Source of the DNA: an uncultured Gammaproteobacteria bacterium
GTDB lineage: Bacteria > Patescibacteriota > Microgenomatia > Daviesbacterales > UBA10151
Assembly (NCBI GenBank): GCA_964504985.1
Contig: CAZDFU010000002.1
Location: 11,782 to 75,781 of the forward strand
DNA: 64,000 bases
Reading direction: 5' to 3'
The notes beneath the pieces are model-generated. The model made no database searches, had not been told where the DNA came from, and saw nothing but the letters and a program-made list of their open reading frames with translations. The position numbers and the translations under genes were made by a program. Numbering within the stretch: the first letter of the stretch is position 1; every line of letters starts with the position of its first letter. Positions 731 to 15,963 of the stretch are shown here, piece by piece.

Positions 731-1105
731 TTACCAGACAAATGCCAGTACTTCCCCTCCTAACTTGTTTTTTCTAGCTTCTTTGTCAGTCATCAATCCT
801 TTTGGAGTTGAAACAATTGCTATACCTAAACCATTCAATACATGAGGTAAACCTTGAACTCCTTTATAAACACGCAGGGAAGGCTTCGAAATTCTTTTAA
901 TATCAGTTATGGCAGCTTTTCTGGCTGTGTATTTTAATGAAACTGTAATTTGTCTGTCCTCCTCTTTAACCCCTTGCAAAAATCCCTCTTTCTCAAGAAG
1001 TTTCATTAACTTAAGGATAAGTTTGGAATATTTTACTGAAACCGTTTGTTTGCCAACCGCATACCCATTTTTTATTCTGATTAAAGCATCTGCAACTGTA
1101 TCCAT
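731..1105 (-). CDS. rpsH: 30S ribosomal protein S8 (uS8)
   Basis: 124-aa ORF; MDTVADALIRIKNG... and C-terminal GGEVLAFVW are typical of S8. Confidence 0.93.
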   Translation of the reverse strand: MDTVADALIRIKNGYAVGKQTVSVKYSKLILKLMKLLEKEGFLQGVKEEDRQITVSLKYTARKAAITDIKRISKPSLRVYKGVQGLPHVLNGLGIAIVSTPKGLMTDKEARKNKLGGEVLAFVW

Positions 1106-1106
1106 A

Positions 1107-1286
1107 TTACCAGCTCGCTTTCTTTACTCCCGGCAACATCCCAGGATTTGCCAGTTCTCTAAAACAAAGCCTGCAAAGACCAAATTTCCCAATAAATCCG
1201 CGTGTTCTACCACAGCGCAAACATCTATTTTTCTTTTGGACTTCATATTTAAATTTTTTCTTTACAACATTACTTACTTTAGCCAT
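1107..1286 (-). CDS. rpsZ: 30S ribosomal protein S14 type Z (zinc-binding, 59 aa); not in ORF track
   Basis: Manual RC translation: [59 protein letters not shown]; CxxC...CxxC zinc motif; canonical position between rplE and rpsH. Confidence 0.88.
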
Positions 1287-1292
1287 AATTAG

Positions 1293-1829
1293 TTATGAGT
1301 ATGGTATTCCCAACTCCTCCAATAATTTCCTACCTTCTTCTTTATTTTTGGCAGTGGTGGCAATAGTTACAGCCAAACCCCTGGTTCTATCAATACTTTT
1401 ATAATCCACCTCAGGGAAGATTGTCTGCTCTCTTAGACCAATATTTAAATTACCTTTATCGTCAAAGGAGTTTGCAGATATCCCTTTGAAATCCCTTACT
1501 TTAGGCAAAACCACACTGATTAGTTTGTCCAAGAAAGTATACATTTTAACACCCCTAAGTGTTACCATCATTCCAATGGGCTGACCTTTTGTAACCTTAA
1601 AGGAAGCAATAGACTTTTTTGCCACTGTTACGACAGGTGTTTGCCCAGCCAAGGCAGATAGATATACTTTAGCTTTTTCCAAAACTGCACTATTTTCCTT
1701 AGCCTCTCCAAGTCCAATACTGATAACAATTTTGTCCAAGCGGGGGACAGCCAGCTTATTTTTTAAACCAAGCTCGTCTTGTAACTTTTTTATTACTTCA
1801 TTCATATACTTTTCCTTCAATCTATTCAT
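1293..1829 (-). CDS. rplE: 50S ribosomal protein L5 (uL5)
   Basis: 178-aa ORF with conserved L5 core; synteny. Confidence 0.93.
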   Translation of the reverse strand: MNRLKEKYMNEVIKKLQDELGLKNKLAVPRLDKIVISIGLGEAKENSAVLEKAKVYLSALAGQTPVVTVAKKSIASFKVTKGQPIGMMVTLRGVKMYTFLDKLISVVLPKVRDFKGISANSFDDKGNLNIGLREQTIFPEVDYKSIDRTRGLAVTIATTAKNKEEGRKLLEELGIPYS

Positions 1830-1835
1830 ATCTGA

Positions 1836-2201
1836 TTATTTAATCTCCTTTTGGCACTTTTTACAAATTCTTATCTTTCTATCTGCCTCCGCTTTTATCC
1901 CAACTCTTGTCAGCTTATTACAATTAGGGCAAACAAGGCTTATATTAGAAATGTCCATTGGTTTAGGAAGATCAATAATCCCTCCCTCCAACCCTTGCAT
2001 TTTTTTAACATGTCTTTTATAAAGATTTACTCCCCCGACAAAAACTTTCCTCTCTTTTGCAATAACATACTCTACCGTCCCCTGCTTACCCCTATCTTTA
2101 CCTAAAAGCACTTTCACCTTATCCCCTTTCTTAATTTTTAACTTTAAATTTGTTCTCTTACGCAAATTTTTTGTTGAAAAACGGGCTTTGAACTTTTCCA
2201 T
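1836..2201 (-). CDS. rplX: 50S ribosomal protein L24 (uL24) with C-terminal CxxC...CxxC zinc-ribbon extension
   Basis: KOW-domain core (KIKKGDKVKVLLGKDRGKQGTV); GGAGG 7 nt upstream of ATG at 2201; C-terminus LVCPNCNK...RICKKCQKEIK. Confidence 0.88.
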   Translation of the reverse strand: MEKFKARFSTKNLRKRTNLKLKIKKGDKVKVLLGKDRGKQGTVEYVIAKERKVFVGGVNLYKRHVKKMQGLEGGIIDLPKPMDISNISLVCPNCNKLTRVGIKAEADRKIRICKKCQKEIK

Positions 2202-2569
2202 TACCATACCTCCGATGCTAAAGAAACTATTTTTGAATATCCTGCATCTCTAACTTCGCGGGCTACAGGACCGAATATCCTGGTTGCCCGTAAATTTCCA
2301 TCATTATCTACCACAACCCCTGCGTTATCATCAAATTTAATATATGAACCATCGTTTCTACGGACTTCTTTCTTACACCTTACAATCACTATTTTAACCA
2401 CCTCATGATCTTTAACTTGACCGTTAGGGTCAGCGCCTTTAACAACGCCTACTGCAAGTTCAGCCAGTCCTGCCTTCCTTTTCCCAGAACCACCAAGAGG
2501 CTGAATAACCTGCAAACTTTTAGCCCCGCTATTATCTGCCACTGTTAACCTAGTCCTGTGTTGAACCAT
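2201..2569 (-). CDS. rplN: 50S ribosomal protein L14 (uL14)
   Basis: 122-aa ORF MVQHRTRLTVADNSGAK...; canonical L14. Confidence 0.95.
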   Translation of the reverse strand: MVQHRTRLTVADNSGAKSLQVIQPLGGSGKRKAGLAELAVGVVKGADPNGQVKDHEVVKIVIVRCKKEVRRNDGSYIKFDDNAGVVVDNDGNLRATRIFGPVAREVRDAGYSKIVSLASEVW

Positions 2570-2574
2570 AAATT

Positions 2575-2680
2575 AGCTTTCAGTCTTCAGCTATCAGCTT
2601 TCAGACTCTTCCTCCTCCTTTTAGTTTTTTCCTGTTTTTCTCCAGCTGCTTCATTTATCTGAGGACTGATGGCTGATGAC
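2575..2680 (-). repeat. Hairpin-forming repeat element (arms 2575-2606 and 2658-2680) embedded in the rpsQ 3' coding end and the rpsQ-rplN spacer
   Basis: agctttcagtcttcagctatcagctttcagac matches 39405-39436 at 31/33 nt; the 3' arm tctgaggactgatggctgatgac resembles 39441-39470. Confidence 0.55.
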
Positions 2681-2988
2681 TTTTTAGTCTTTTCTTCCTC
2701 TGGCATTACTTCTGCAATTAGTTCTTCTGCCTGCTCTTTTAGTTTTTGTTCAGCAATCTCTGCCAAACTCCTTCCTAAAACTTTTGTTATTTTCCAGTGT
2801 TTATTTTTAGAAATAGGCTTACATTTAACAAATTCAACTATATCCCCATCTTTAATATCAATACTGCTATCAACCAGGTATTTTTTACTCCGGATGTAGG
2901 TTTTTTTGTATAAAGGATGCTTTGCTATCCTTTCTATGAGAACCGTTGCCGTATTTTTTAGTTTTGTAGATATAACGCGTCCAGTCAT
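2587..2988 (-). CDS. rpsQ: 30S ribosomal protein S17 (uS17) with ~50-aa charged C-terminal extension
   Basis: OB-fold S17 core (GRVISTKLKNTATVLIERIAKHPLYKK); the extension is encoded partly by a repeated hairpin element (see repeat feature 2575-2680). Confidence 0.88.
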   Translation of the reverse strand: MTGRVISTKLKNTATVLIERIAKHPLYKKTYIRSKKYLVDSSIDIKDGDIVEFVKCKPISKNKHWKITKVLGRSLAEIAEQKLKEQAEELIAEVMPEEEKTKKSSAISPQINEAAGEKQEKTKRRRKSLKADS

Positions 2989-3011
2989 AATTTATAACTA
3001 ATCTCTATAAT

Positions 3012-3281
3012 TTAGAGACTAGATTTCTCCTTTCCTTTTTCATCATCTGGCTCTGGATTCTTAACTTTAGACTCCAGTTGCTGTACTAATTCTTTTTGTC
3101 TGACAACAGTTAATATTTGAGCCAAATCCTTTTTCTTTTTTGAAATCATTCTCACATCTTTCAATTTTTTCATATTTTTATCCACTACCAGGTTTGCAAT
3201 ATCCTCCCGGATAGTTTTAGCCTTTAATTTTAGTTCTTTAATATCTAAACCTTTTATTTCTATTAAACCGTTTTTTTTCAT
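3012..3281 (-). CDS. rpmC: 50S ribosomal protein L29 (uL29) with C-terminal extension
   Basis: Helical L29-like N-terminus (LKGLDIKELKLKAKTIREDIANL); position between rplP and rpsQ. Confidence 0.8.
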   Translation of the reverse strand: MKKNGLIEIKGLDIKELKLKAKTIREDIANLVVDKNMKKLKDVRMISKKKKDLAQILTVVRQKELVQQLESKVKNPEPDDEKGKEKSSL

Positions 3282-3283
3282 AG

Positions 3284-3694
3284 CTATTTTGTTATAATTT
3301 TTGTTTCAATAGGCAGTTTATGTGAAGCCAGTCTTAATGCTTCTTTAGCAATAATTTCTGTTACTGCACCCATTTCAAAAATTAATTGCCCTCTTTTAAC
3401 AACAGCCACATACCCTTCCACATCACCTTTTCCAGACCCCATTCTACTCTCTGCAGGATGTTTTGTAACTGGTTTATCCGGAAAAATCCTGATCCAGATA
3501 CGTCCGCCTCTTTGAGTATAATGGGCCATAGCCCTTCGGGCTGATTCGATTTGTCTGGCGCTAATCCAACCTGCTTCCATTGCTTTTAGCCCGAATATTC
3601 CAAAAGCCAAACTAACACCCCTGGTGGCAACCCCATCTCTTTTTCCCCTAAAGGTTTTCCTGTGTTTATTTCTTTTTGGTTGCAAAAGTGCCAT
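3284..3694 (-). CDS. rplP: 50S ribosomal protein L16 (uL16)
   Basis: [19 protein letters not shown]... canonical L16. Confidence 0.95.
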
Positions 3695-3695
3695 A

Positions 3696-4337
3696 TTAAA
3701 TCTCCACCTCTCCTTTGTTTATCCATACCTTTACTCCAACATAACCAGACTTTGTCAAGGCTGGGTAAACTGCAAAATCTATATCTGCTCTTAAAGTATG
3801 TAAAGGCATTGTTCCCGAAGCTTTCCATTCCCTCCGCGCAATTTCTGCTCCACCAATTCTTCCTGAGATAACTACTTTCACCCCTTTTGCCCCAACCCGC
3901 ATTACCCTATCTATAGCCTGATTCATTACCCTTTGAGCTGGTAACCTTTTAGCAAGCTGCTCAGCAACTGATTGGGCAACAAGGTATGCAGAAAGATCTG
4001 CTGATTTTAACTCCATTGGCACAACTTCCAAACTATTATCGTTTTTAACCGCCAGCTCCTTAAGTAAAAGTTTCTTAACTTCAGTTAAACCACTTCCCCC
4101 TCTGCCAATTAAAACTCCTGGACGGGAAACAAAAATTATGACTTTTAACTTGTTAACTGCTCTCTCTATCTCTACAGACTGAATACCAGCAGGTCTTAAT
4201 TTCTTCATCAAAATATCCCTGATTTCTATATCTTCTTTTATAAACTGTCTGTATTTATCACCTTTTGCAAACCACCGGGATTTCCAATTAGCTCCTATAC
4301 CCATTCTGAAACCTACCGGATGTATTTTTTGTCCCAT
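3696..4337 (-). CDS. rpsC: 30S ribosomal protein S3 (uS3)
   Basis: [13 protein letters not shown]... KH domain; canonical S3. Confidence 0.95.
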
Positions 4338-4341
4338 ATAA

Positions 4342-4725
4342 TTAGTGATTTTTGCTAATCACTTGCTTATCTCCTTTCTCTTTACTATTAACTAATAACT
4401 CATCACTTATAACTATTTTTATATGGCTCATTCTTTTTTTGTAAGGCTTCACTCTTCCTCTTGTTCCTGCCCGGAAACGTCTCATTTTCATACTTTCATC
4501 AATTTCAATCTTTTTAAAACCAACTTTTCCCAAATCCATGCCTTTTTGTTTTGCATTTGCCAAAACTGTTTCCAAAGCCTTTGTTAGATCCTTTGCTGCG
4601 TATTTTGGAGTCACACGCAAAATATCCAATGCTTTCGAAGGTTCCATTTTCCTCACCATATCAGCCACCAGCCTCAGTTTTCTAGGTGAAGTATGTATAT
4701 ATTTTTGTATAGTTTGTATTTCCAT
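4342..4725 (-). CDS. rplV: 50S ribosomal protein L22 (uL22)
   Basis: 127-aa ORF with conserved L22 core; synteny. Confidence 0.93.
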   Translation of the reverse strand: MEIQTIQKYIHTSPRKLRLVADMVRKMEPSKALDILRVTPKYAAKDLTKALETVLANAKQKGMDLGKVGFKKIEIDESMKMRRFRAGTRGRVKPYKKRMSHIKIVISDELLVNSKEKGDKQVISKNH

Positions 4726-4728
4726 ATA

Positions 4729-5013
4729 TTACGTCTTAGACGTGGATTTTTCTGTCACCTTTCCGTGAGTTCTAAATAACCTAGTCGGCGCAAATTCACC
4801 TAAGTAATGACCTACCATTGACTCAGTCACAAACACGCTCACAAAATTTTTACCCTGATGCACTAAAAAAGTGTGTCCCACAAATTCAGGTGGAATCTGT
4901 GATCTTCTGGCCCATGTCTTAATAGGTTGTTTTGTCCCGCCGGATTTTTGAGTCATTACTTTCTTTAATAATTTCTCATCAATAAACGGGCCTTTTTTAG
5001 TTGATCTTGCCAT
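4729..5013 (-). CDS. rpsS: 30S ribosomal protein S19 (uS19)
   Basis: [19 protein letters not shown]... canonical S19. Confidence 0.95.
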
Positions 5014-5109
5014 ATTTTTTCTTGGACTTTTCTGATTACCCTTATTCTTTTATTTAGTTAATCTCAGAAAAAGTCCGGTTCTTCCTTTCTTGTTATTCAG
5101 ATTCATAAG

Positions 5110-5874
5110 TTATTTTCTTCTCCTTACAATAAATTTATTAGAATATTTTCCTTTATACCTGGTTTTTCCCACAGCGCTTCTGCCATATTTAGTCATTGGC
5201 CTCTTTCTTCCAATACCTGATCTTCCTTCACCACCACCGTGGGGGTGAGAATCAGGATCCTGTGCTACGCCCCGGACTGTAGGCCTTATACCCATATGCC
5301 TGGATCTTCCAGCCTTACCGATCACCTGCTGTTTATTATCTTCATTTCCTAATACTCCAAGTGTTGCAAAAGACTCAAGACTAATCATTCTAACCTCACC
5401 AGACGGCATTTTCAAATGGGCAAAACCGCCTTCTTTGGCCAAAAGCTGCAAAGAAACTCCTGCACTTCTGCCAACTTGCCCCCCTTTTCCCGGCACAAGC
5501 TCCACATTATGCACTAAACTGCCAATTGGCATATTTTTTAATTTCATAGCATTGCCTGTTTTAGATTCAGCTTTATCAGCAGAAATAACTTTTTCCTCTA
5601 AATTTAAGCCTTTCGGGGCTAAAATATATCTATATTCCCCGTCTGTATATTTTATAAGAGCAACCTCAACATTCCTGTTTGGATCATACTCAATAGCAGC
5701 AACCTCACCCGCTACACCAAATTTATCCCGTTTAAAATCTATTTCCCTGTACTGTCTTTTATGTCTCCCACCCTGACCCCTAACAGTTACCATACCGCCA
5801 GATGACCTGCCAGAATGCTTTTTTAATAAATGTTTTAATTTTTTTGCGCTTTTAATATTTAATTGCTTTTTCAT
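5110..5874 (-). CDS. rplB: 50S ribosomal protein L2 (uL2)
   Basis: 254-aa ORF; GRNxxGxIT/RHRGGGHKRxYRxIDFKR-like segment; C-terminal GGGEG motif. Confidence 0.95.
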   Translation of the reverse strand: MKKQLNIKSAKKLKHLLKKHSGRSSGGMVTVRGQGGRHKRQYREIDFKRDKFGVAGEVAAIEYDPNRNVEVALIKYTDGEYRYILAPKGLNLEEKVISADKAESKTGNAMKLKNMPIGSLVHNVELVPGKGGQVGRSAGVSLQLLAKEGGFAHLKMPSGEVRMISLESFATLGVLGNEDNKQQVIGKAGRSRHMGIRPTVRGVAQDPDSHPHGGGEGRSGIGRKRPMTKYGRSAVGKTRYKGKYSNKFIVRRRK

Positions 5875-5880
5875 TTAGTT

Positions 5881-6309
5881 CTACTTTCCTGTTATTACTT
5901 TTCTCTGAGTTGTAGGAGCTGCTCCTACTGAGCTTTTCTCTACTTTCACCTTAGTTCTTCCCAAAATATCTTTCTTCTCCCTTAACTTAACCGGCTCACC
6001 TTCTGCTGTTGTCACCACTACCTCTTCTTTTGGTGTTTCAAACAGGGCAATCCTTACACCCTTTCCCAGCTGGACCATAGCTTTCTTTAAAGGAGCGGAT
6101 TTATAAAGTTTTCTTACTTTTCTTTGCTGTTTAAGCTGTCCCTTTATATTGACCGTTCTTACAGCAATAACTTTAACATTAAATTTCTCACTTACTGCTT
6201 TGGCAATTAAAGGCTTGCTTGCTTTCTTATCCACCTCAAAAGTATATAAATTAGAAGCAGCAAGTTTCATTGATTTTTCTGATACCACCGGCCTTTTAAG
6301 TACGATCAT
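5881..6309 (-). CDS. rplW: 50S ribosomal protein L23 (uL23) with ~45-aa C-terminal extension
   Basis: L23 core (VLKRPVVSEKS...YTFEVDKKASKPLIAKAVSEKFNVKV); ATGA overlap with rplD. Confidence 0.88.
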   Translation of the reverse strand: MIVLKRPVVSEKSMKLAASNLYTFEVDKKASKPLIAKAVSEKFNVKVIAVRTVNIKGQLKQQRKVRKLYKSAPLKKAMVQLGKGVRIALFETPKEEVVVTTAEGEPVKLREKKDILGRTKVKVEKSSVGAAPTTQRKVITGK

Positions 6310-7064
6310 ATTTTCCCTTCTCTTTTAACGTTTGTTCCTACTCCACCGGAGGTTTTCACTTCTTCACTAGATTCTTTTTTGCCTAATTTATCAATTGTTT
6401 CTTTTGTTAAAAGTAATATTTCATGTTTTAATACTTCATAAGCATTTAATCCGCCTGCCGGTAAAACATTAATATTGGGAATATTTCTAGCAGCTCTAAC
6501 TATATTATCCATTTTGTCAGCTGTTACAATTAAGGTACTCCTTTGTTTCTTTTCTGTGATTGATGAGATTAACTTAAGTATTTCTTTTGTTTTGCCGGTA
6601 ATTTTTTCTAAGCCTGTTAATCCTAAAACATTTTTGTCTGAAGCCTTAGAAGAGAGAGCAGATATTAAAGCTGATCTTCTCATCTTTTTTGGTAAAATTA
6701 ATCTGACCTTTCTTGGTTTTGGTCCAAAAACAATTCCTCCGCCCACAAAAATCGGAGCCCTGATACTTCCATGTCTTGCCCTGCCAGTTCCTTTTTGTCT
6801 AAATATTTTGACTGTTGATCCTTCTACCTCTCCTCTGCCTTTGGTGGAAGCTGTAAAAGTTTTTTGGTTGGTTGTATAAACCCTAACAGCCTGAGTCAAT
6901 AAACTTTTATTAATCTCAGCACCAAAAATTTCCTTTGGCAAGCTTAAGGTTCCGCTGGTTCTCCCGGCCGGAGAATAAACAGGCACTGTTAAACCACCCG
7001 TTCCGCGAGCACGGGAAGCTGCTGGTTTACTAGTCTTTGCAGTTACTTTTCTTTTAACTGGCAT
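6306..7064 (-). CDS. rplD: 50S ribosomal protein L4 (uL4)
   Basis: 252-aa ORF with QKGTGRARHGS L4 signature. Confidence 0.93.
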   Translation of the reverse strand: MPVKRKVTAKTSKPAASRARGTGGLTVPVYSPAGRTSGTLSLPKEIFGAEINKSLLTQAVRVYTTNQKTFTASTKGRGEVEGSTVKIFRQKGTGRARHGSIRAPIFVGGGIVFGPKPRKVRLILPKKMRRSALISALSSKASDKNVLGLTGLEKITGKTKEILKLISSITEKKQRSTLIVTADKMDNIVRAARNIPNINVLPAGGLNAYEVLKHEILLLTKETIDKLGKKESSEEVKTSGGVGTNVKREGKI

Positions 7065-7923
7065 TTTCTTTTACCTCTTCTTTCAGCTCTTGTTTTTGTT
7101 CTTGAGGGTTATCTTGATTTTGTTCTTCTGATTCACCAGCATTTTGTTCTGCTGCTTTTTCTGACTTTTCTGCTTCCTCTTCTCCTTCTTCAAGTTTTTC
7201 CTCAGGCGGGGGAGTATAACCCTTAATTCTGCCTAATTTAGTTATTACCAGCAAACTGTTAATAGGACCTGGAATCCCTCCTTTAACTATCAAATAATTT
7301 TTTACTTTATCTATTCCCACAATTTCCAGATTCTTGATACTTACTTTTTCACTGCCCATATGCCCTGCCATTTTTTTGCCTTTATAAACTCTTCCCGGAG
7401 TAGTTCCAGAACCAACCGCACCTGGAGCTCTGTGTCTGTCTGATTGACCATGAGTCTTAGGTCCACCGGCAAAACCGTGACGTCTTACCCCGCCTTGAAA
7501 ACCTTTACCTTTCGAAACTCCCTGTACTTTAACAGCATCACCTATTGAAAAAACCTGGTTCAGTTTAATTTCTGTTCCAGGTTTTAAAGTTCCGAGCGAA
7601 CCTGTGGTGAGCGTACCTGTACTGAGCGAAGTCGAAGTAGTCGAACCAGCCGGGGAATTTTGTTCATTAATTCTGACTTCCCTAAACCAACGGACAGCCT
7701 GATCAAAGCCTGCTTTTTTAGTATGACCAAGTTGAGGCTTTCTAACTGACTTTTTGGATCCATACCCAAGCTGGATAGCATCATACCCATCTTTGCCATC
7801 TTGTGTTTTGGCTTGAGTGACTAAATTTGGTTGAATTTCCACCACAGTAGCCCCAACCCTTCTGCCCCGTGAGTCATAAGTTGAGGTCATATTTTTCTTA
7901 ATTCCAAGTAATGTATTAGTCAT
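7054..7923 (-). CDS. rplC: 50S ribosomal protein L3 (uL3) with an internal Ser/Thr-rich insertion and ~60-aa acidic C-terminal tail
   Basis: Start chosen at MTNTLLGIKKNMTSTYD (AGGA Shine-Dalgarno 6 nt upstream); the ORF-track N-terminal extension would begin inside a terminator U-tract; conserved L3 blocks present. Confidence 0.88.
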   Translation of the reverse strand: MTNTLLGIKKNMTSTYDSRGRRVGATVVEIQPNLVTQAKTQDGKDGYDAIQLGYGSKKSVRKPQLGHTKKAGFDQAVRWFREVRINEQNSPAGSTTSTSLSTGTLTTGSLGTLKPGTEIKLNQVFSIGDAVKVQGVSKGKGFQGGVRRHGFAGGPKTHGQSDRHRAPGAVGSGTTPGRVYKGKKMAGHMGSEKVSIKNLEIVGIDKVKNYLIVKGGIPGPINSLLVITKLGRIKGYTPPPEEKLEEGEEEAEKSEKAAEQNAGESEEQNQDNPQEQKQELKEEVKENAS

Positions 7924-7948
7924 TTTTGTCCTAGACAATTCAAGCATT

Positions 7949-7990
7949 AAAAAGAGTGAGTCCTTCGGTAAACTCAGGATCTCACTCAGT
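7949..7990 (-). terminator. Rho-independent terminator-like hairpin (GAGTGAG-TCC / GGATCTCACTC, then U5 on minus-strand RNA) 25 nt upstream of the rplC start
   Basis: Read directly from sequence. It sits downstream of the metalloprotease gene and inside the leader from the predicted rplC promoter, so it could be an attenuator. Confidence 0.6.
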
Positions 7991-8086
7991 ATCTCGCCTT
8001 CAATCGTCGTATCGTTTTCCGACGCACGATCTACTGAAATTTTCTTACGTTTTGACGCTAATCAAAAGGCAAAATTTTCTTATAGG

Positions 8087-8116
8087 ATTTTAACACGAAC
8101 GGCGCACAAATTGCAA
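8087..8116 (-). promoter_or_regulatory. Predicted sigma70-type promoter for rplC and downstream ribosomal genes: TTGCAA-N18-TGtTAAAAT
   Basis: -35 at 8116-8111, extended -10 TGnTAAAAT at 8095-8087 on minus strand. Confidence 0.45.
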
Positions 8117-8139
8117 GCAACAAGGAAAAAATTGATGTT

Positions 8140-8991
8140 TTAATAGAGTTTGTTTATTCCCAAAATATCACCGTTTCCTAGATCTCTTTTTTTGGTTTCA
8201 CCCTCTGTTGCATAACCGTACATAGTTTCATCAATGCAACTGTTATATAGATCCCCCATACCCACACTATGACCAAGTTCATGGGTGGCAATATTATCAA
8301 AATCCATCTTCCCAGCTACCCCGCTGCTGTCAACTGACCAATCATAGCTTACATCATCATAAACCTGATCCCATTCCACCAGTTGTCTTTGCCAAACGGG
8401 CCCCCCAAAAATTCCCCAAATAATAGTCACTGCAATAGTATTTGAGTCTGCAACATCTGCAAAATAGACCTCATTTTGACCATCAGGTGAAACTGTATCA
8501 GCAACTAATTCTGCTGAGGTAGTAGCAGCCTGTCCTAATACATCAACGCCTAAATCATTTCCCACTACCCCATCTGTGGCATCTTCCCATTTGGATACTC
8601 CATTGCTTAATACAGCTGAAGCTGAGGCATAATCTATATTTCTCAAATTAGAAGGATTAAATACCCAAGGCTCAACAACCCTCCATTTTGCTCCACTGCT
8701 TAAATATGTATAACAGCTGCTAGATCCGCCTTTACCGCTGCCTGGTTTGGCTAAGTTTTGTTTAGGATGTACAATAGCCAAACCCTCAACCTGCTTACCG
8801 CTCACTGGGTCAATTGCATTACCCAAAGAGATCACATTAGAATGATTTGCAGAAGAAGGAAGCGTTAATGTTCTATTTGTACCAGGCGTGGAAAGTATAG
8901 CTGTCTGAAACGGAGTGGCTGCTAATGCTGAACTTACCAAAAACAGAAGGGAAGCACCTATTATAACACCACTCATCAATTTAACGGGCAT
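8140..8991 (-). CDS. Secreted zinc metalloprotease, metzincin-like (HELGHSVGMGD = HExxHxxGxxD, followed by a Met-turn ETMYGY); N-terminal signal peptide
   Basis: Hydrophobic N-terminus VIIGASLLFLVSSALAA; the HExxHxxGxxD motif with an Asp third ligand resembles snapalysin/matrixin-type zincins; inserted between rpsJ and rplC. Confidence 0.7.
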   Translation of the reverse strand: MPVKLMSGVIIGASLLFLVSSALAATPFQTAILSTPGTNRTLTLPSSANHSNVISLGNAIDPVSGKQVEGLAIVHPKQNLAKPGSGKGGSSSCYTYLSSGAKWRVVEPWVFNPSNLRNIDYASASAVLSNGVSKWEDATDGVVGNDLGVDVLGQAATTSAELVADTVSPDGQNEVYFADVADSNTIAVTIIWGIFGGPVWQRQLVEWDQVYDDVSYDWSVDSSGVAGKMDFDNIATHELGHSVGMGDLYNSCIDETMYGYATEGETKKRDLGNGDILGINKLY

Positions 8992-9059
8992 ATAAAATAT
9001 ATATCATAAATCTTTTCCAGGGTCAACCAAATGAAATTAAACAGATATGACACCACCTG

Positions 9060-9368
9060 TCACATCTTAACTTCAATGTCAACGCCTGCAGGGATTTCTA
9101 AATGCATTAAAGAATCAATTGTTTTTTGAGTAGGCTCAACAATGTCAACCATTCTTTTGTGTGTTTTTATTTCAAATGCTTCTCTGGAATCTTTATCTGT
9201 GTGTGGAGATCTTAAAACAGTAATTCTTTCTATTTTTGTGGGAAGGGGGATAGGACCAACAATTTTAGCACCGGTTCTTAAGGCTGTATCCAATAAGGAC
9301 TCACAGGTATTATCTAATACCCGGTGATCGTAACTTTTCAGTTTTACTCTGATCCGTCCTCTTGGCAT
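9060..9368 (-). CDS. rpsJ: 30S ribosomal protein S10 (uS10)
   Basis: [19 protein letters not shown]... canonical S10. Confidence 0.95.
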
Positions 9369-9427
9369 ATTTATAATCCTTTAGGGATCTCAACCTTTTA
9401 ATGTGCATTATAAGCTACTTAAGTAAC

Positions 9428-10612
9428 TTAGGCTATTATTTTGGTAATAACACCTGCTCCAACTGTTTTACCACCTTCACGGACTGCAAACCTTAAACCT
9501 TCTTCCATAGCAACGGGGGTAATTAATTTTCCGACAATTTTAACAGTATCTCCAGGCATAGCCATTTCAACACCCTCAGGTAATTGCACTTCACCAGTCA
9601 CATCAGTGGTTCTGACATAAAACTGTGGCCTGTAGCCTTTGAAAAATGGGGTATGTCTTCCGCCTTCTTCTTTGGAAAGAATGTATACTTCTGCTTCAAA
9701 TTCAGAGTGAGGAGTTATAGAACCCGGCTTTGCTAAAACCTGACCACGCTCAACATCATCTTTCTCAATACCCCGGAGTAAAATTCCAGCATTATCTCCT
9801 GCCTGACCTTCATCCAATAATTTATGGAACATTTCAATTCCTGTAACCACGCTCTTTTTAGTAGGCCTTATTCCAACAATTTCAATTTCCTCATTAACTT
9901 TAACTTTACCTCTCTCAATTCTTCCAGTCACCACTGTTCCACGTCCTTTAATAGAAAATACATCTTCAACTGCCATCAGGAATGGCTTATCCACATCTCT
10001 TACCGGAGTTGGAATCCATTCATCAACTTTAGCCATAAGTTCTTCAATAGCTTTAACTGACTCCGGATCACCTTCCAAAGCTTTTTTAGCAGAACCCCGG
10101 ATTATTGGAGATTGTGAGTCATATTCATATTTTTTAAGCAAATCCCTGACTTCTTCTTCTACAAGATCCAAAAGCTCAGGATCATCCACCTGATCAACTT
10201 TATTAAGGAAAACTACAATAGCAGGAACACCTACCTGGCGGGCTAAAAGCAAATGTTCTCTGGTTTGCGGCATTGGACCATCCGGTGCAGAAACTACCAA
10301 AATTGCTCCATCTGTTTGAGCAGCACCGGTAATCATGTTTTTGATATAGTCTGCATGACCAGGCATGTCAATATGGGCATAGTGTCTTTTTTCTGTTTCA
10401 TATTCCTGATGGGAAATATTAATGGTAATACCGCGGGCTTTTTCTTCTGGAGCGTTGTCTATTTGGTCAACAGAGCGGGCCTCTGCCAGACCTTTATCAG
10501 ATAATACTTTGGTAATAGCAGCAGTTAGGGTTGTTTTACCGTGGTCAACATGACCCATGGTTCCAACATTAACATGCGGTTTTGATCTATCAAATTTTTT
10601 TGCGTCAGCCAT
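9428..10612 (-). CDS. tuf: Elongation factor Tu
   Basis: Start placed at [29 protein letters not shown]; G1-G4 motifs present; 394 aa. Confidence 0.95.
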
Positions 10613-10718
10613 ATTTAAGTAATTAAACCAAAAAATACAGTCCCCTGTCAAGTTCATCCTGAGCCTGTCGAAGGACTGATACTAAAAATATACCTGATTT
10701 CTTCCTAAAATGCAAGGG

Positions 10719-11825
10719 TTAAATTAAGCTAGCGAAAGCACCTCTTAATTTATACCATACTCTTGTACTTAAACTTCCAACCGCTGTTCTCGGGTTAAAC
10801 CTTATATCTTCCTTCGTCAATTTTCTATCCATTAGCTGCCGGATGCATTCTTTAACATCTTTACCTCGAAGTAAATTGAATAATTCACTAACTATCGGTG
10901 CATCAATTCTTCGTTCTCTTGCAAAAGCATATGCTCCTGGTATAGTAGAGAAAGCTTCTATCTCTTTGTCTCTAGATATCTGTTCTATTGTTTTACCTTT
11001 AGCAAATTCTTCGCCAGCCCTTCTATTTCTGGTTCCTTCTTGTATGCAAGATAAATATAAGTCTCCAGTGCCAGCAAGCCCTCTAACAGTTTCCTCGCTT
11101 GCTGCTCCCATGGCTATTACTAACCTGGACATTTCTGCCAATGCCCTAGTATAAAATAATGCCTCGCTGTTTCCAGCTACACCTAATCCTCTAGCAACTC
11201 CAATTCCAAAAGCATAGACATTTTTTAATGCTCCACATGCTTCCACCCCAACAGGATCATCTGATGCATAAATCCTCAGAAAAGAAGCACTAAATGACCG
11301 TTGCAGTTGTTCAATAAGAAAAGGGTTATAGGCAGCAATTACAGTCCCTGTTACCTTTCTTTTAACAAGCTCTTCCGCTTTATTTGGACCTGACCAAATA
11401 GCTATTCTATCTACCAAATCAGGGCTTGGATACCTTTTTAATATAAAAGTGGAAATTGTTGAGTTAACTTCTTTAATTAACCCTTTTGTCCCTATAACAA
11501 GGTTACTGTTACTGCTTAAAAGAGGCCTTTCTCCACCAAGCATCTGTTCTAGGACTAGATGAACTACCCTTGATGGAACAGCTACAATAACTATATCTTT
11601 ACCTGCTACTGCCTCTTCTAAATTATCAGTCGCTCTAATATCTTTTGATAATTTTATACCACCCAACCTTTTACTTACTCTGGTTCTCTGAAATTCTCTT
11701 AAGGCATCAGGATCAGGAAAGAAAGCTGTTGTGTCATGGCCTAAGCCTGCTGATATATCAGCAACAGCACTACCTAAAGCTCCAGCACTCACCACACCTA
11801 CACTTATTAAATGTTCTTTGAACAT
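10719..11825 (-). CDS. gpsA: NAD(P)H-dependent glycerol-3-phosphate dehydrogenase
   Basis: N-terminal Rossmann segment ISVGVVSAGALGSAVA; GDLYLSC...NRRAG segment typical of GpsA; ~368 aa. Confidence 0.8.
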   Translation of the reverse strand: MFKEHLISVGVVSAGALGSAVADISAGLGHDTTAFFPDPDALREFQRTRVSKRLGGIKLSKDIRATDNLEEAVAGKDIVIVAVPSRVVHLVLEQMLGGERPLLSSNSNLVIGTKGLIKEVNSTISTFILKRYPSPDLVDRIAIWSGPNKAEELVKRKVTGTVIAAYNPFLIEQLQRSFSASFLRIYASDDPVGVEACGALKNVYAFGIGVARGLGVAGNSEALFYTRALAEMSRLVIAMGAASEETVRGLAGTGDLYLSCIQEGTRNRRAGEEFAKGKTIEQISRDKEIEAFSTIPGAYAFARERRIDAPIVSELFNLLRGKDVKECIRQLMDRKLTKEDIRFNPRTAVGSLSTRVWYKLRGAFASLI

Positions 11826-11829
11826 GAAA

Positions 11830-13974
11830 TTAATGTTCTACTCTGCCTGTGAAGCCTGAGGATTCAATGATCTTTTGGGTGATGTTAGAAGGCACTGTTT
11901 CATAATGATCTGCCTCCATATAGTATGTTGCCCTGCCTTGAGACATACTTCTTATGGCTGTAGCATAACCATGCATTTCTGCCAAAGGTACTAATGCGAC
12001 TACTACTCTGGCAGTTCCTCTTGTTTCAGATGATAAAATTTGAGCTCTTTTTGCAGACAAGTCACCAATAATTTCTCCTAAAAATTCATCAGGAGTGGTT
12101 ACTTCTACCTTCATAATAGGCTCAAGTAAGATCAAGTCAGCTTTTTTGGCTGCCTCAGAGAGCCCTAATGAGGCAGCAATCTTAAATGCCACCTCTGATG
12201 AGTCAACATCATGAAAAGACCCATCATAAACCACCACTTTAATATCAGTCACAGGGTATCCTGCTAAAATACCTGTATCCTCTTTTTCGGTTACTCCTTT
12301 TTCAATAGGAGGAATAAACTCCCTTGGGATAGCTCCGCCCACAATTTCTGAGGCAAATTCCCTGCCGCTGCCTCTTGGGAGTGGTTCAATTCTTAGCAGA
12401 CAATGACCATATTGGCCACGGCCTCCTGTTTGGCGGATATATTTACCCTCACCCTCAGCTATTTTTGTAATGGTTTCTTTATAGGCAACCTGGGGCTGAC
12501 CAACATTGGCTTCAACTTTAAATTCTCTTTTCATTCTGTCAACCAGAACCTCCAACTGAAGCTCTCCCATGCCAGCAATTATTGTTTGTCCTGTTTCAGC
12601 ATCAGATTTTACTCTAAAAGTGGGGTCTTCCTCAGATAAACGGTTTAAAGCATAGCCTAATTTTTCCTGATCACTCTTTGTTTTTGGTTCTATTGCCAAA
12701 GAAATAACCGGTTCGGGGAATGAAATATTTTCCAAAATTATAGGAGCAGTCTCATCGCAAAGAGTATCTCCAGTTATAGTATCTTTAAGTCCCACTGCTG
12801 CTACAATTTCTCCTGCATATGCTTCCTCGATTTCTTCCCTATCGTTAGCGTGCATCAATAGAAGCCTTCCTACTCTTTCTTTTATTTGTTTTGTAGCATT
12901 ATAAACATATGAACCGCTTTTCAAAGTTCCTGAATAAACTCTGATATAGGTTAATTTACCAACATGAGGATCAACCTGAATTTTAAAAGCTAGAGCTGAT
13001 AAAGGCTGGGTGGAATCTGCTTTCCTTATCTCTTGTTCCTCAGTTCCTGGTTTAAACCCATAAACTTCAGAAATATCTTGCGGGGAGGGTAAATACTCCA
13101 CCACACAATCAAGCATTAACTGAACCCCTTTATTCCTTAAAGAAGACCCTGCTAAAACAGGTACAATTTTATTGTCTATAACTGCTTTCCTTAAAGCCTT
13201 TTTAAGCTCTTCTACTGAGATTTCTTCACCACCAAGATATTTTTCCATTAAGACATCGTCTGTTCCAGAAATTTCTTCCACCAGTTTTTCCCTGTGTTCT
13301 TCTACCTGGGAAACCATATCCGCAGGGATTTCTACCTCATTAAATTTTGCTCCTGTTTGATCACCCTCCCAAATAAAAGCTTTTTTTGTTAAAAGATCAA
13401 CAACACCTTTAAAATCATTTTCTTTACCAATAGGCAGGTTATAGGGCAGTGCATTTGCTCCCAATCTATCCCTGGCAGACTGAATCGTGCCTAGAAAATC
13501 TGCTCCCACCACATCCATTTTGTTGGAAAAAGCAATGAGCGGAACTTTGTATTTATTAGCCTGTCTCCAAACTGTTTCTGTCTGTGATTGAACACCAGAT
13601 GATGAATCCAAAACAATAACTCCACCATCCAAAACCCTCAAGGACCTTTCAACTTCTGCTGTAAAATCAACATGGCCCGGGGTATCAATTAAATTAATTC
13701 TTACTTCAGCATCCTTAAATAGAGCTTCATCCCTTTTGGCTACCCAAAAAGTGGTGATAGCAGCAGAAACAATAGTAATTCCTCTTTCTTTTTCCTGCTC
13801 CATCCAGTCAGTGGTAGTAGTGCCTTCATCAATATCTCCAATTTTATAGGTTCTGCCAGTATAAAATAGGATTCTCTCTGTAGTGGTAGTTTTACCTGCA
13901 TCAATATGGGCAATAATACCAATGTTTCTGATCCTATCTAATGGGAAATCTCTTTTTGTTTTTTGAACAGCCAT
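11830..13974 (-). CDS. fusA: Elongation factor G
   Basis: 714 aa; [20 protein letters not shown]-domain; EF-G domains II-V. Confidence 0.95.
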
Positions 13975-14033
13975 AACTGGGGTTAAGCGTCAAGGGGAAA
14001 GTTTTTCACTCTTTACCCTTTGCGGTTTCTGCT

Positions 14034-14255
14034 TTAGCCTTCCTCCAATTCTTTAATAATCTTTTTTACTTGATCAATCTGTACCCTGAAAGTTTCTGAA
14101 TCCTCAATAGCCATAGTATAGGCTGCGTTTTCAGACAGGTCACCTTCTTGGGCTGCAGCACCTTTTTTGTGTTGAGTTTCTACAAGCTGATCCTCAAGTT
14201 TTTTGAGGTTCTCTTTCCACATCTTAAGTTTTTCTTGCTTTAATTTATCATCCAT
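14034..14255 (-). CDS. Gre-factor N-terminal coiled-coil domain protein (GreA/GreB NTD only, 73 aa)
   Basis: Contains the Gre signature EGDLSENAAY within a predicted coiled coil; no C-terminal FKBP-like domain is encoded in the 60 nt before the fusA start. Confidence 0.6.
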   Translation of the reverse strand: MDDKLKQEKLKMWKENLKKLEDQLVETQHKKGAAAQEGDLSENAAYTMAIEDSETFRVQIDQVKKIIKELEEG

Positions 14256-14284
14256 AATTTTATTTTAGATTGTTACTTACTAAC

Positions 14285-14309
14285 AAAAAACCTCCCTCAA
14301 ACTGGGAGG
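14285..14309 (-). terminator. Rho-independent terminator (CCTCCC-N7-GGGAGG followed by U6 on minus-strand RNA)
   Basis: Plus strand aaaaaaCCTCCCtcaaactGGGAGG; downstream of ORF 14362-14580. Confidence 0.6.
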
Positions 14310-14361
14310 CAACAAGTAAATACTAATGAATTTGATCCTAAAAGTCAACAACAGATCAGTC

Positions 14362-14580
14362 TTAGGCAGCTGGAGGAAGGGGATCAGAATCTGGTGGGTT
14401 TGAATTACGATTTATATTAATAGGCGGTCTAAGTCTAGTTAAAACCTCCTGTGTTGAGCGAGGCATACGTGCAAGTGCTTCAATTGCTTCAGGCTTTCTT
14501 GTGATATCTAACACTCTGAATGTTCCAATAGAGATTATTTTTCTTCCTTCCCCACATCCATTTGATTCAACTGAACGCAT
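14362..14580 (-). CDS. Hypothetical protein (72 aa), possibly a gene remnant
   Basis: ORF with no recognisable motif; lies in a decayed 1-kb spacer between rpsG and fusA. Confidence 0.25.
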   Translation of the reverse strand: MRSVESNGCGEGRKIISIGTFRVLDITRKPEAIEALARMPRSTQEVLTRLRPPININRNSNPPDSDPLPPAA

Positions 14581-14659
14581 AAGTTTATCTTAACAGATAA
14601 CTTTTTCTTTTCAAGATAGAATCTTTTTATAAAAGATAGCTCGATCACCATACTGATTT

Positions 14660-14750
14660 AGGCCCTTTTTAATCTCTTTATAAACTTCCGCGGACTCTTG
14701 CAATTGCAAAGCAATTGGGTGTATTGTCCGGGGTTTTCTGCTAGTGATAA
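14660..14750 (+). repeat. Partial duplicate of the nadK 3' end plus downstream spacer (taatct..ataaacttccgcgga ... cggGgttttctgctagtgat) with a 35-nt insert carrying the palindrome TTGCAATTGCAA
   Basis: DNA-level match to 54795-54841 (15-nt and 18-nt identical blocks in the same order and orientation); the plus-strand frame reads ..INFRG.. like the NadK C-terminus. Confidence 0.6.
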
Positions 14751-14999
14751 TAATCCAATCCATATTGAGTAGCTCTGTTTGAATAGCTCTGTGGCCAATG
14801 ATTAATACATTAATATCACGATCGTAGTATTTTTGTCACAACTCATCCAAAAAATTTTTCCTCCTTTTTGCGTTGCTGGTATTTTATTTCTTTCTTAGAT
14901 CTTTTAAGTAAATCGGACCAACATTTTTTACTGCAATAAAACCCGGATCCTTTCCACATCTCAATTATTGACGGATGAAAACCGGATATTAATATTGAC

Positions 15000-15476
15000 T
15001 CACCAGCGGAAATGACTAAATGCGCGGTTGGCAGCTGCAACCTTTTGAGTATCCTCTTTTTTCTTAATGGCTAAACCAGTACTATTGGCAGCATCCTGCA
15101 GTTCTGCTGCTAATTTAGCTGCAAATGAATGAAACTGTTTATTTGATTTGGACTTTGCTCCAGCTATTATCCACCTGATTGCCAAAGCTTCTTTCCTGTC
15201 TCCCCTTACCTCAATTGGTACCTGGTATGATGCCCCACCCACTCTTCTGGGCTTTACTTCCATTTTTGGGGAAACATTTTGAATAGCTTTCTCAAAAATA
15301 GCCACAGGATCTTGCTTTGTCTGCTCTTTGATAGAATCCAGTGCCTGATAAACCACCTTTTGGGCAGTAGATTTTTTACCATCCGCTGTAATCTTATTTA
15401 TAAAACGGGTTACCAATTTCGACCCAAAAATAGGGTCTGGTTGTAATATCCGCTTGGTGACTTTTCCACTTCTCAT
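15000..15476 (-). CDS. rpsG: 30S ribosomal protein S7 (uS7)
   Basis: 158 aa, ends ...SHFRW; canonical S7. Confidence 0.95.
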   Translation of the reverse strand: MRSGKVTKRILQPDPIFGSKLVTRFINKITADGKKSTAQKVVYQALDSIKEQTKQDPVAIFEKAIQNVSPKMEVKPRRVGGASYQVPIEVRGDRKEALAIRWIIAGAKSKSNKQFHSFAAKLAAELQDAANSTGLAIKKKEDTQKVAAANRAFSHFRW

Positions 15477-15490
15477 AACTCAATACTCTT

Positions 15491-15949
15491 TCACGCTGGA
15501 GCAGGCTGAGCAACTGCAGCTCTTGGAGCAACTGCGCCTCTCCCGCCTTTCTTGGTGCCGTATTTAGACCTGCCCTTTTTTCTATTAACAACTCCTGCCA
15601 AATCAAGCTTACCTCTTACTAAATGATATTTAACACCTGGAAGATCTTTAACCCTTCCTCCCCTGACTAAAACTATTCCATGTTCTGCTAACGCGTGACC
15701 CTCACCCTGGATGTAAGCTGTCACCTCTGTCCTGTTGGATAATCTGACCCTAGCTACTTTTCTTAAGGCAGAATTTGGCTTTTTAGGAGTCATTGTTTTC
15801 ACCAAAGTCACTACACCCCTTTTTTGAGGGCTAAAATCAGCTGTGTAACGCCTATCTTTAGCATTAAACCCACGCCTTAGAGCCGTTGCTTTAATCTTTT
15901 TTGCGACCTTTTTCCGGCCTTTTCTCACTAATTGATTAATTGTTGGCAT
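15491..15949 (-). CDS. rpsL: 30S ribosomal protein S12 (uS12) with ~25-aa C-terminal extension
   Basis: [14 protein letters not shown]...; PNSALRKV segment; extension [20 protein letters not shown]. Confidence 0.93.
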
Positions 15950-15963
15950 ATGTTATCTGGTGT

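Follow-up and report, generated by a model that had tools for sequence, protein, structure and literature searches.

A predicted secreted matrix metalloproteinase-like protease gene at a probable operon boundary between rpsJ and rplC in a Daviesbacteria-like genome

We analysed the junction between the ribosomal protein genes rpsJ and rplC in a stretch of 64,000 nucleotides (nt) of contig CAZDFU010000002.1 (GenBank assembly GCA_964504985.1; GTDB lineage Daviesbacterales), hereafter called the window, in which a protease gene separates the two. We consider it likely that this is an autonomous, self-promoted gene for a secreted matrix metalloproteinase (MMP)-like protease, inserted at an operon boundary in a narrow sub-lineage. 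The apparent break in a highly conserved gene order is explained by the operon boundary of this candidate-phyla lineage, which is shifted downstream by one gene. We regard the break as an ordinary insertion at that boundary, specific to the lineage; it is not a new regulatory arrangement and does not newly couple secretion to the synthesis of ribosomes.

Predicted promoters and a conserved leader between rpsJ and rplC

The open reading frame (ORF) of 283 amino acids (aa) at 8140-8991 on the minus strand (852 nt including the stop codon) is flanked by rpsJ and rplC, and the coordinates and sequence features given for it in a preliminary description of this DNA were correct. In 80 genomes fetched with ribosomal protein S10 as query, rpsJ and rplC are mostly 0-150 nt apart, in agreement with the tight order claimed there for most bacteria, and an 852-nt gene at this junction is unusual compared with bacteria in general. 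The rpsJ product of the window is 92-96% identical to S10 of Daviesbacteria/Microgenomates. Its gene is the final one of an upstream unit fusA-gpsA-tuf-rpsJ, and rplC is the head of the downstream ribosomal protein operon (rplC-rplD-rplW-rplB...).

The promoter predicted earlier for rplC (TTGCAA, 18 nt, TAAAAT with TG, at 8116..8087) was borne out by comparison with other genomes. It begins 21 nt past the protease stop, and its pattern, TTGC[AT][AT] followed by 17 or 18 nt ending in TGT and by TA[N]AAT, is kept in 36/36 related Daviesbacteria-like loci (the window, L009-L013 and L091-L120), where it mostly lies 41-51 nt upstream of an invariant leader core. Thirty of these loci were detected by searching metagenome contigs for the core pattern (TTTCAGTAGATCG...ACTGAGTGAG), which was always found directly upstream of rplC. 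The leader is about 100-160 nt long across the loci and is present whatever gene lies 5' of rplC; the 216 nt from the protease stop to the rplC ATG can be aligned with the region preceding rplC in L009-L013, irrespective of the presence of the protease.

The leader is composed of a variable proximal hairpin, the core, a helix UCAGUA/UACUGA enclosing a hairpin, a terminator/attenuator hairpin, a U5 tract and a Shine-Dalgarno (SD) sequence. An alignment of the terminator stem (alignment A3) revealed compensatory changes at four pairs, with 96.8% of the cells paired vs 30-40% in shifted controls. For the middle helix there are two alternative pairings, with one covarying pair in support of either. 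The start of rplC was moved from 7947 to 7923, as position 7947 falls within the U-tract and the N-termini of homologues read MxNTLLGIKK; an SD sequence AGGA precedes the new start at 7932-7929, and rpsJ also has an AGGA. Since the conserved promoter, the leader with its terminator and the SD sequence all precede the ATG at 7923, rplC is predicted to head its own transcription unit. The S10 operon (rpsJ-rplC-rplD...) would accordingly not form a single transcription unit in these genomes, a predicted promoter and leader standing between rpsJ and rplC in all 36 loci. The hairpin and U-tract after the protease gene, previously regarded as the protease's own terminator, are real, but they belong to the rplC leader: the hairpin lies inside the rplC 5' untranslated region (UTR) because the conserved promoter is found upstream of it at a near-fixed distance in every locus.

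A structured 5' UTR that closes with a terminator hairpin and a U-run upstream of a ribosomal protein operon is the design of a ribosomal protein leader, and we regard the module as a candidate new leader/attenuator of this type. It resembles the Escherichia coli S10 leader in having a promoter, a structured leader, a hairpin directly upstream of the terminator and U-run and an SD sequence for the first gene, and in its position ahead of the rplC-rplD-rplW-rplB... cluster (PMC3616713 for E. coli). In contrast to the E. coli leader, it lies between rpsJ and rplC and not upstream of rpsJ, and it has no sequence or Rfam similarity to it. In E. coli, L4 stimulates termination in the S10 leader, an element confined to Gammaproteobacteria (PMC3616713). 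A leader of the L4 type ahead of rplC has been proposed for Archaeoglobi only (PMC7247131), and we know of no such proposal for Patescibacteria. The literature yielded nothing specific on an rpsJ/rplC operon split or an rplC leader in the candidate phyla radiation, general papers on ribosomal protein leaders aside (PMC3616713, PMC7247131). A scan of positions 5000-16000 against Rfam 15 at E<=1 gave no match, the leader included. Beyond the Daviesbacteria-like genomes, inspection of four distant Microgenomates loci (Woesebacteria L042 and L066; L078; L069) showed a like design with a different sequence, in which a -10-like TATAAT is followed by GGCGCC...GGCGCC and U6 just ahead of rplC. To our knowledge, almost no cis-regulatory RNAs are known from Patescibacteria; the conserved, covarying rplC leader outside Rfam and the recurring landing of genes in the rpsJ-rplC spacer are the most novel by-products of this analysis.

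The protease gene has promoter elements of its own. In the 68-nt spacer after rpsJ no SD sequence is present, and the -10 element TATATA ends 6 nt ahead of the protease ATG. TTGAC-type -35 and -10 elements located 6-14 nt before the start, again with no SD sequence, were read from the sequence in 9/9 contexts of the gene (the window, L001, L004, L007, L009, L010, L121, L122 and L124). Because the -10 element sits so close to the ATG and an SD sequence is absent, the protease mRNA is probably leaderless or near-leaderless; and because the same promoter design recurs in every context, the gene appears to travel with its own promoter. The preliminary description had seen no terminator between rpsJ and the protease. 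This did not hold as worded: the terminator scan flags a weak hairpin there (9067..9043; 10 pairs, three of them guanine-cytosine (GC); fold -18.7 kcal/mol, z -1.3), and L121 has at the same place, between rpsJ and the protease promoter, a clear GCACG-cagg-CGTGC hairpin followed by T6.

Individual comparison of the genomic contexts of protease homologues showed that the rpsJ-rplC position is common only to the closest relatives (82-88% identity), which stem from independent assemblies. The order is rpsJ-protease-rplC in L010 (85%). In L121 (88%) the end of rpsJ is followed by the hairpin and T6 and then by promoter and protease. L009 (82%) contains three extra genes and reads rpsJ, a sigma70_r4-like gene, two opposite-strand genes (one of them DUF3276), protease and rplC. 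Homologues at 70, 67, 63, 62 and 61% identity adjoin genes for beta-lactamase, LMF1/VKOR, MauE/DoxX, HIT/unknown and histidine kinase, respectively, and no ribosomal protein genes were found near them in these five different contexts.

The spacer itself is variable. The distance from rpsJ to the leader is 92-124 nt in 8/22 metagenome loci and 0.4-5 kb in 14/22; eight loci have 12-34 nt between the rpsJ stop and the rplC -35 element, the others 0.3-5 kb. The cargo differs from locus to locus and may lie on either strand (Table 1), with opposite-strand genes between rpsJ and rplC in L009, L011, L092 and L102. The hydrolases at this site in L108 and L117 have N-terminal signal anchors and dockerin-like C-terminal repeats (glycoside hydrolase family GH44, E 2e-56; GH5 cellulase, E 1e-38). 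The protease was found in 0/30 metagenome loci with the leader. It is single-copy within the window. The composition profile showed no compositional anomaly or foreign-DNA signal across the protease gene, GC content being even over the junctions. Direct and inverted repeats around the insert were limited to short chance-level matches, with no mobile-element signature.

An MMP-like metzincin family with Asp or His as third zinc ligand

The sequence HELGHSVGMGD occupies residues 237-247 of the protease, and the Met-turn ETMYGY contains M257. A hidden Markov model (HMM) search matched Pfam Peptidase_M10 (PF00413) with 26.9 bits, above the threshold of 24, over residues 215-283 only; 82/82 diverse family members match the same model, with a best E of 9e-14. 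The window protein found MMP-7 by phmmer among PDB sequences (E 4e-4), and a family profile found MMP-7, -10, -3, -8 and -12, down to 6e-6. The end of this profile alignment coincides precisely with the C-terminal end of the MMP catalytic domain. In it, Met257 faces the Met-turn Met of MMP-7 ('AVMYP'), and Asp247 the third MMP His.

A first AlphaFold2 (AF2) model, for which the alignment was shallow (53 sequences, with no identity below 58%), reached a predicted local distance difference test score (pLDDT) of 50 and was discarded. The model from the 82 diverse members has a pLDDT of 86.9 and a predicted template modelling (TM) score, pTM, of 0.84, low confidence being limited to the signal peptide and the Gly/Ser/Lys linker (79-92). 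It contains the five-stranded sheet and the helices A, B and C of the metzincin catalytic domain, and in a Foldseek search against the PDB its top 50 matches were MMP catalytic domains or karilysin (E 7.7e-9, target-normalised TM 0.6-0.7). Both the HMM search and the structure prediction thereby agree with the metzincin architecture deduced earlier from the HELGHSVGMGD motif and the Met-turn.

In the alignment of the 82 members, W135, N173, D230, H237, E238, G240, H241, G244, M257 and D275 do not vary. At position 247, 45/82 members have His and 37/82 Asp, with Asp in the window protein and its close relatives; the aligned sequences thus place MMP-type and snapalysin-type zinc sites on one scaffold within this family. 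The flanks covary with position 247, reading GxGHPxDxC..EETMYR with His and GxGDLYxxC..xTMYGY with Asp. Such a His/Asp split at the third zinc ligand in a single family is of small interest for metalloprotease biochemistry. C93 and C252, the sole Cys residues of the window protein, are present in 79/82 sequences and absent jointly from the same three, and this joint loss suggests a C93-C252 disulfide. Disulfides are expected outside the cell, and the joint conservation of the two Cys residues is consistent with an extracytoplasmic protein. The N-terminus reads MPVKLMSGVIIGASLLFLVSSALA|AT with an AxA site, and a like pattern occurs in all homologues. By inspection, K4, a hydrophobic core at 5-24 (mean Kyte-Doolittle >2) and ALA at 22-24 form a Sec-like pattern, in line with the signal peptide proposed before.

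Compared with matrixins (MEROPS M10A/PF00413; e.g. karilysin of Tannerella forsythia and human MMP-7), the protease has in common the HExxHxxGxx motif on the active-site helix, the Met-turn and a C-terminal helix ending in ...GI(N/Q)KLY; matrixins are secreted with an N-terminal pro-region, as would probably be the case here. It differs from them in its third zinc ligand, Asp and not His, and in the conserved C93-C252 pair. It also lacks the structural-zinc site: the catalytic domain contains His only at 237 and 241, and the 82-member alignment has no other conserved His column. No PRCGxPD cysteine switch motif is present in the window protein. In the AF2 model the N-terminal segment is a beta-hairpin (about residues 37-78) with a flexible linker, unlike the three-helix MMP prodomain, and this combination would resemble a pro-segment.

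The preliminary description had compared the zinc site with snapalysin-type enzymes. The Asp as third ligand stands, but membership in the snapalysin family (Streptomyces small neutral protease, MEROPS M7) was rejected. Pfam Peptidase_M7 (PF02031) gave no match to the window protein even at E<=1, MMPs score clearly higher, and the catalytic domain comprises ~190 aa vs about 130 aa in snapalysin. The M7 model is matched weakly by 8/82 family members. Judged by alignment and model, the protease belongs to a distinct bacterial sub-family of MMP-like metzincins and is neither a canonical matrixin nor a snapalysin. Grouping at 90% identity gives 2163 clusters for the family; at 50% identity, 2228 representatives have E<=1e-3, and 156 of them lie below 1e-30. 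Named relatives are labelled 'matrixin family metalloprotease' of Candidatus Daviesbacteria or Patescibacteria at NCBI, so the protease itself is a fresh member of an already annotated family; in the literature we found nothing specific on matrixins in Patescibacteria. For annotation, MMP-like metzincin is the best label for the protease, and 7923 the start of rplC.

Proposed explanation and its alternatives

We propose that the protease gene was acquired in a narrow Daviesbacteria-like (Microgenomates, Patescibacteria) sub-lineage, the target being the stretch that separates the fusA-tuf-rpsJ operon from the operon led by rplC. Insertions would be tolerated in the short distance from the rpsJ stop to the rplC promoter, and the protease would be located at this junction because rpsJ and rplC belong to separate operons in the clade. 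Transcription may start from the sigma70-type promoter of the gene itself in the 68-nt spacer. The transcripts would run into the rplC leader and stop or be attenuated at its hairpin; as no terminator of its own follows the protease (the -35 element is only 21 nt away), this is the expected end both of its transcripts and of those that read through from rpsJ. The product would be exported via Sec and then likely activated by loss of its N-terminal segment, as in a zymogen. Its zinc would be held by H237, H241 and D247, with E238 as general base, M257 in the Met-turn and C93-C252 as a disulfide. Considering the general physiology of Patescibacteria, its likely role would be extracellular protein or peptide degradation and nutrient scavenging in a small-genome, Daviesbacteria-type organism.

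Several points weigh against this explanation. The sigma70 scan made no call at the protease promoter because its -10 element ends in A. In the window the hairpin after rpsJ is weak and the protease gene points the same way as rpsJ, so that some read-through co-transcription is plausible. Secreted hydrolases recur at the junction (the protease; GH44/GH5 in L108 and L117), which could be a hint of selection for the site and not just of its tolerance to inserts. Asp as third ligand is unusual for M10. Moreover, promoter activity, the leaderless start, secretion, activation, catalytic activity and the transcript ends are predictions from sequence.

According to the preliminary description, the protease is probably co-transcribed with rpsJ and wired to S10 expression. 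It would then lie on a ribosomal protein transcript, and its output would follow the growth rate, as that of a secreted effector coupled to growth. Compatible with this are its orientation, which is that of rpsJ, the spacer of only 68 nt, the weak post-rpsJ hairpin (3 GC pairs, z -1.3), the preservation of the arrangement in L010, L121 and L009 and the other secreted hydrolases at the same junction in L108 and L117. However, a conserved promoter belonging to the gene, with no SD sequence, is present in every context. As a design principle, co-transcription is contradicted by L121, where a good terminator separates the gene from rpsJ, and by L009, where two opposite-strand genes part the two. 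Homologues at <=70% identity never adjoin ribosomal protein genes, other junction cargo is often on the opposite strand, and co-transcription is not needed to explain anything. With rpsJ and rplC as separate units with a variable spacer, a conserved promoter for the protease, unrelated contexts of its homologues and a terminator that is that of the rplC leader, we consider co-transcription unlikely and find the coupling to growth rate unsupported.

A somewhat better case, though still a rather doubtful one, can be made for the hairpin and U-tract at 7949-7987 as the plain terminator of whichever gene lies upstream (the protease, or rpsJ in loci that lack an insert), with rplC served by a downstream promoter or by read-through. 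The hairpin has the classical form with covarying stem pairs, the insert-free loci leave 12-34 nt to the -35 element and hence no room for another post-rpsJ terminator, and distant Microgenomates likewise have a GC hairpin with U6 just before rplC. Yet an extended -10 promoter lies upstream of the hairpin at a near-fixed distance in 36/36 loci, ~100 nt of strongly conserved leader between promoter and hairpin would be left unexplained, and no promoter-like element fits into the 25 nt from the U-tract to the rplC ATG.

The protease assignment itself could be questioned, if the HExxH were fortuitous in a non-protease fold or the protein an inactive pseudo-protease, that is, a binding or structural protein on a metzincin scaffold. 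The limitation of the M10 similarity to the C-terminal 70 residues, Asp in place of His as third ligand and the missing MMP structural-zinc site would be in keeping with this, but H237, E238, H241, G244 and M257 are invariant in all 82 diverse members, which makes it very improbable. Even less credible is an assembly artefact that juxtaposed the genes on a chimeric contig. The genome is metagenome-assembled and the exact protein is found on a single contig only; against this, the order rpsJ-protease-rplC occurs in three other independent assemblies (L010, L121 and L009), and GC content is even across the junctions.

It is possible, and we suggest it tentatively, that the module of promoter, leader and terminator hairpin ahead of rplC is an undescribed autoregulatory ribosomal protein leader of Microgenomates, similar in function to the E. 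coli L4/S10 attenuator. Its terminator may insulate the rplC operon and thereby make the spacer a safe, highly transcribed landing pad which repeatedly collects accessory genes, notably secreted hydrolases (the protease, GH5/GH44).

Gene neighbourhood and further observations

The features of the window and the cargo of the rpsJ-rplC spacer in other loci are listed in Table 1.

Table 1. Features around the rpsJ-rplC junction of the window, regions of the protease, and spacer cargo in related loci
Feature	Position	Strand	Basis or remark
fusA	11830-13974	-	
glycerol-3-phosphate dehydrogenase gene (gpsA-like; NAD(P)H-dependent)	10719-11825	-	NCBIfam, E 8e-77
tuf	9428-10657	-	
rpsJ (ribosomal protein S10)	9060-9368	-	Pfam Ribosomal_S10, E 1e-36
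weak terminator-like hairpin overlapping the rpsJ stop, then GUUUAAUUUCAUUU (U-rich)	9043-9067	-	terminator scan
predicted protease promoter	-35 TTGACC 9026-9021; -10 TATATA 9003-8998	-	17-nt spacer ending in TGA
protease gene	8140-8991	-	283 aa
predicted signal peptide	about residues 1-24		
N-terminal beta-hairpin segment	about residues 37-78		candidate pro-segment
Gly/Ser/Lys linker	residues 79-92		
catalytic domain	residues 93-283		H237, E238, H241, D247, M257, C93-C252 pair
rplC promoter (predicted)	8087-8116	-	promoter scan; TTGCAA, 18-nt spacer ending in TGT, TAAAAT (extended -10)
conserved rplC 5' leader	7924-8086	-	alignments A1, A3
leader core motif UUUCAGUAGAUCG	8039-8027	-	invariant
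leader terminator/attenuator hairpin	stem 7987-7954, then U5 7953-7949	-	
rplC (ribosomal protein L3)	7054-7923 (ORF as called 7054-7947)	-	Pfam Ribosomal_L3
rplD	6306-7064	-	
rplW	5881-6309	-	
GIY-YIG gene	spacer of L092		
DUF3276	spacer of L105, L111, L115, L009		
methyltransferases	spacer of L108; L078		FtsJ-like in L078
secreted GH44/GH5 enzymes	spacer of L108 (about 750-5640), L117 (about 7010-9420)		
several unknown ORFs	spacers of other loci		
>2.5 kb of unrelated genes after rpsJ	L015		Shapirobacteria

The str/S10 cluster of the window has further breaks. The gpsA-like gene splits fusA from tuf, and in relatives the fusA-tuf gap is variable (0.9-3 kb; L011-L013, L092, L096, L107 and L117). 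A third break is the gap of ~1 kb (13975-14999) that separates rpsG (15000-15476) from fusA. It contains small ORFs only, namely one of 73 aa rich in charged residues (14034-14255) and one of 72 aa (14362-14580), as well as a terminator-like hairpin at 14310-14290. Because the cluster is interrupted at several junctions, adjacency to ribosomal genes is a poor guide to co-regulation in Patescibacteria.

Among the other genomes, L015 (Shapirobacteria) has no rplC within 2.5 kb downstream of rpsJ, where a thermonuclease-like gene and others are found instead, and in L081 and L084 (Planctomycetota) rplD directly follows rpsJ with no rplC between them. Clearly Microgenomates-like str/S10 genes occur under titles such as 'uncultured Gammaproteobacteria/Pseudomonadota bacterium' in L013, L014, L018, L069 and L078, which are probably mislabelled bins; the S10 of L013 is 92% identical to that of the window.

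The ribosomal proteins L3, L4 and L23 encoded in the window (7054-7923, 6306-7064 and 5881-6309) are unusually long. L4 has an N-terminal extension (252 aa) and L23 a C-terminal extension (142 aa). L3 has a Ser/Thr-rich insert within the chain, and its C-terminal tail of ~50 aa is acidic (EEKLEEGEEEAEK...); similar L3 tails are present in L011 and L013.

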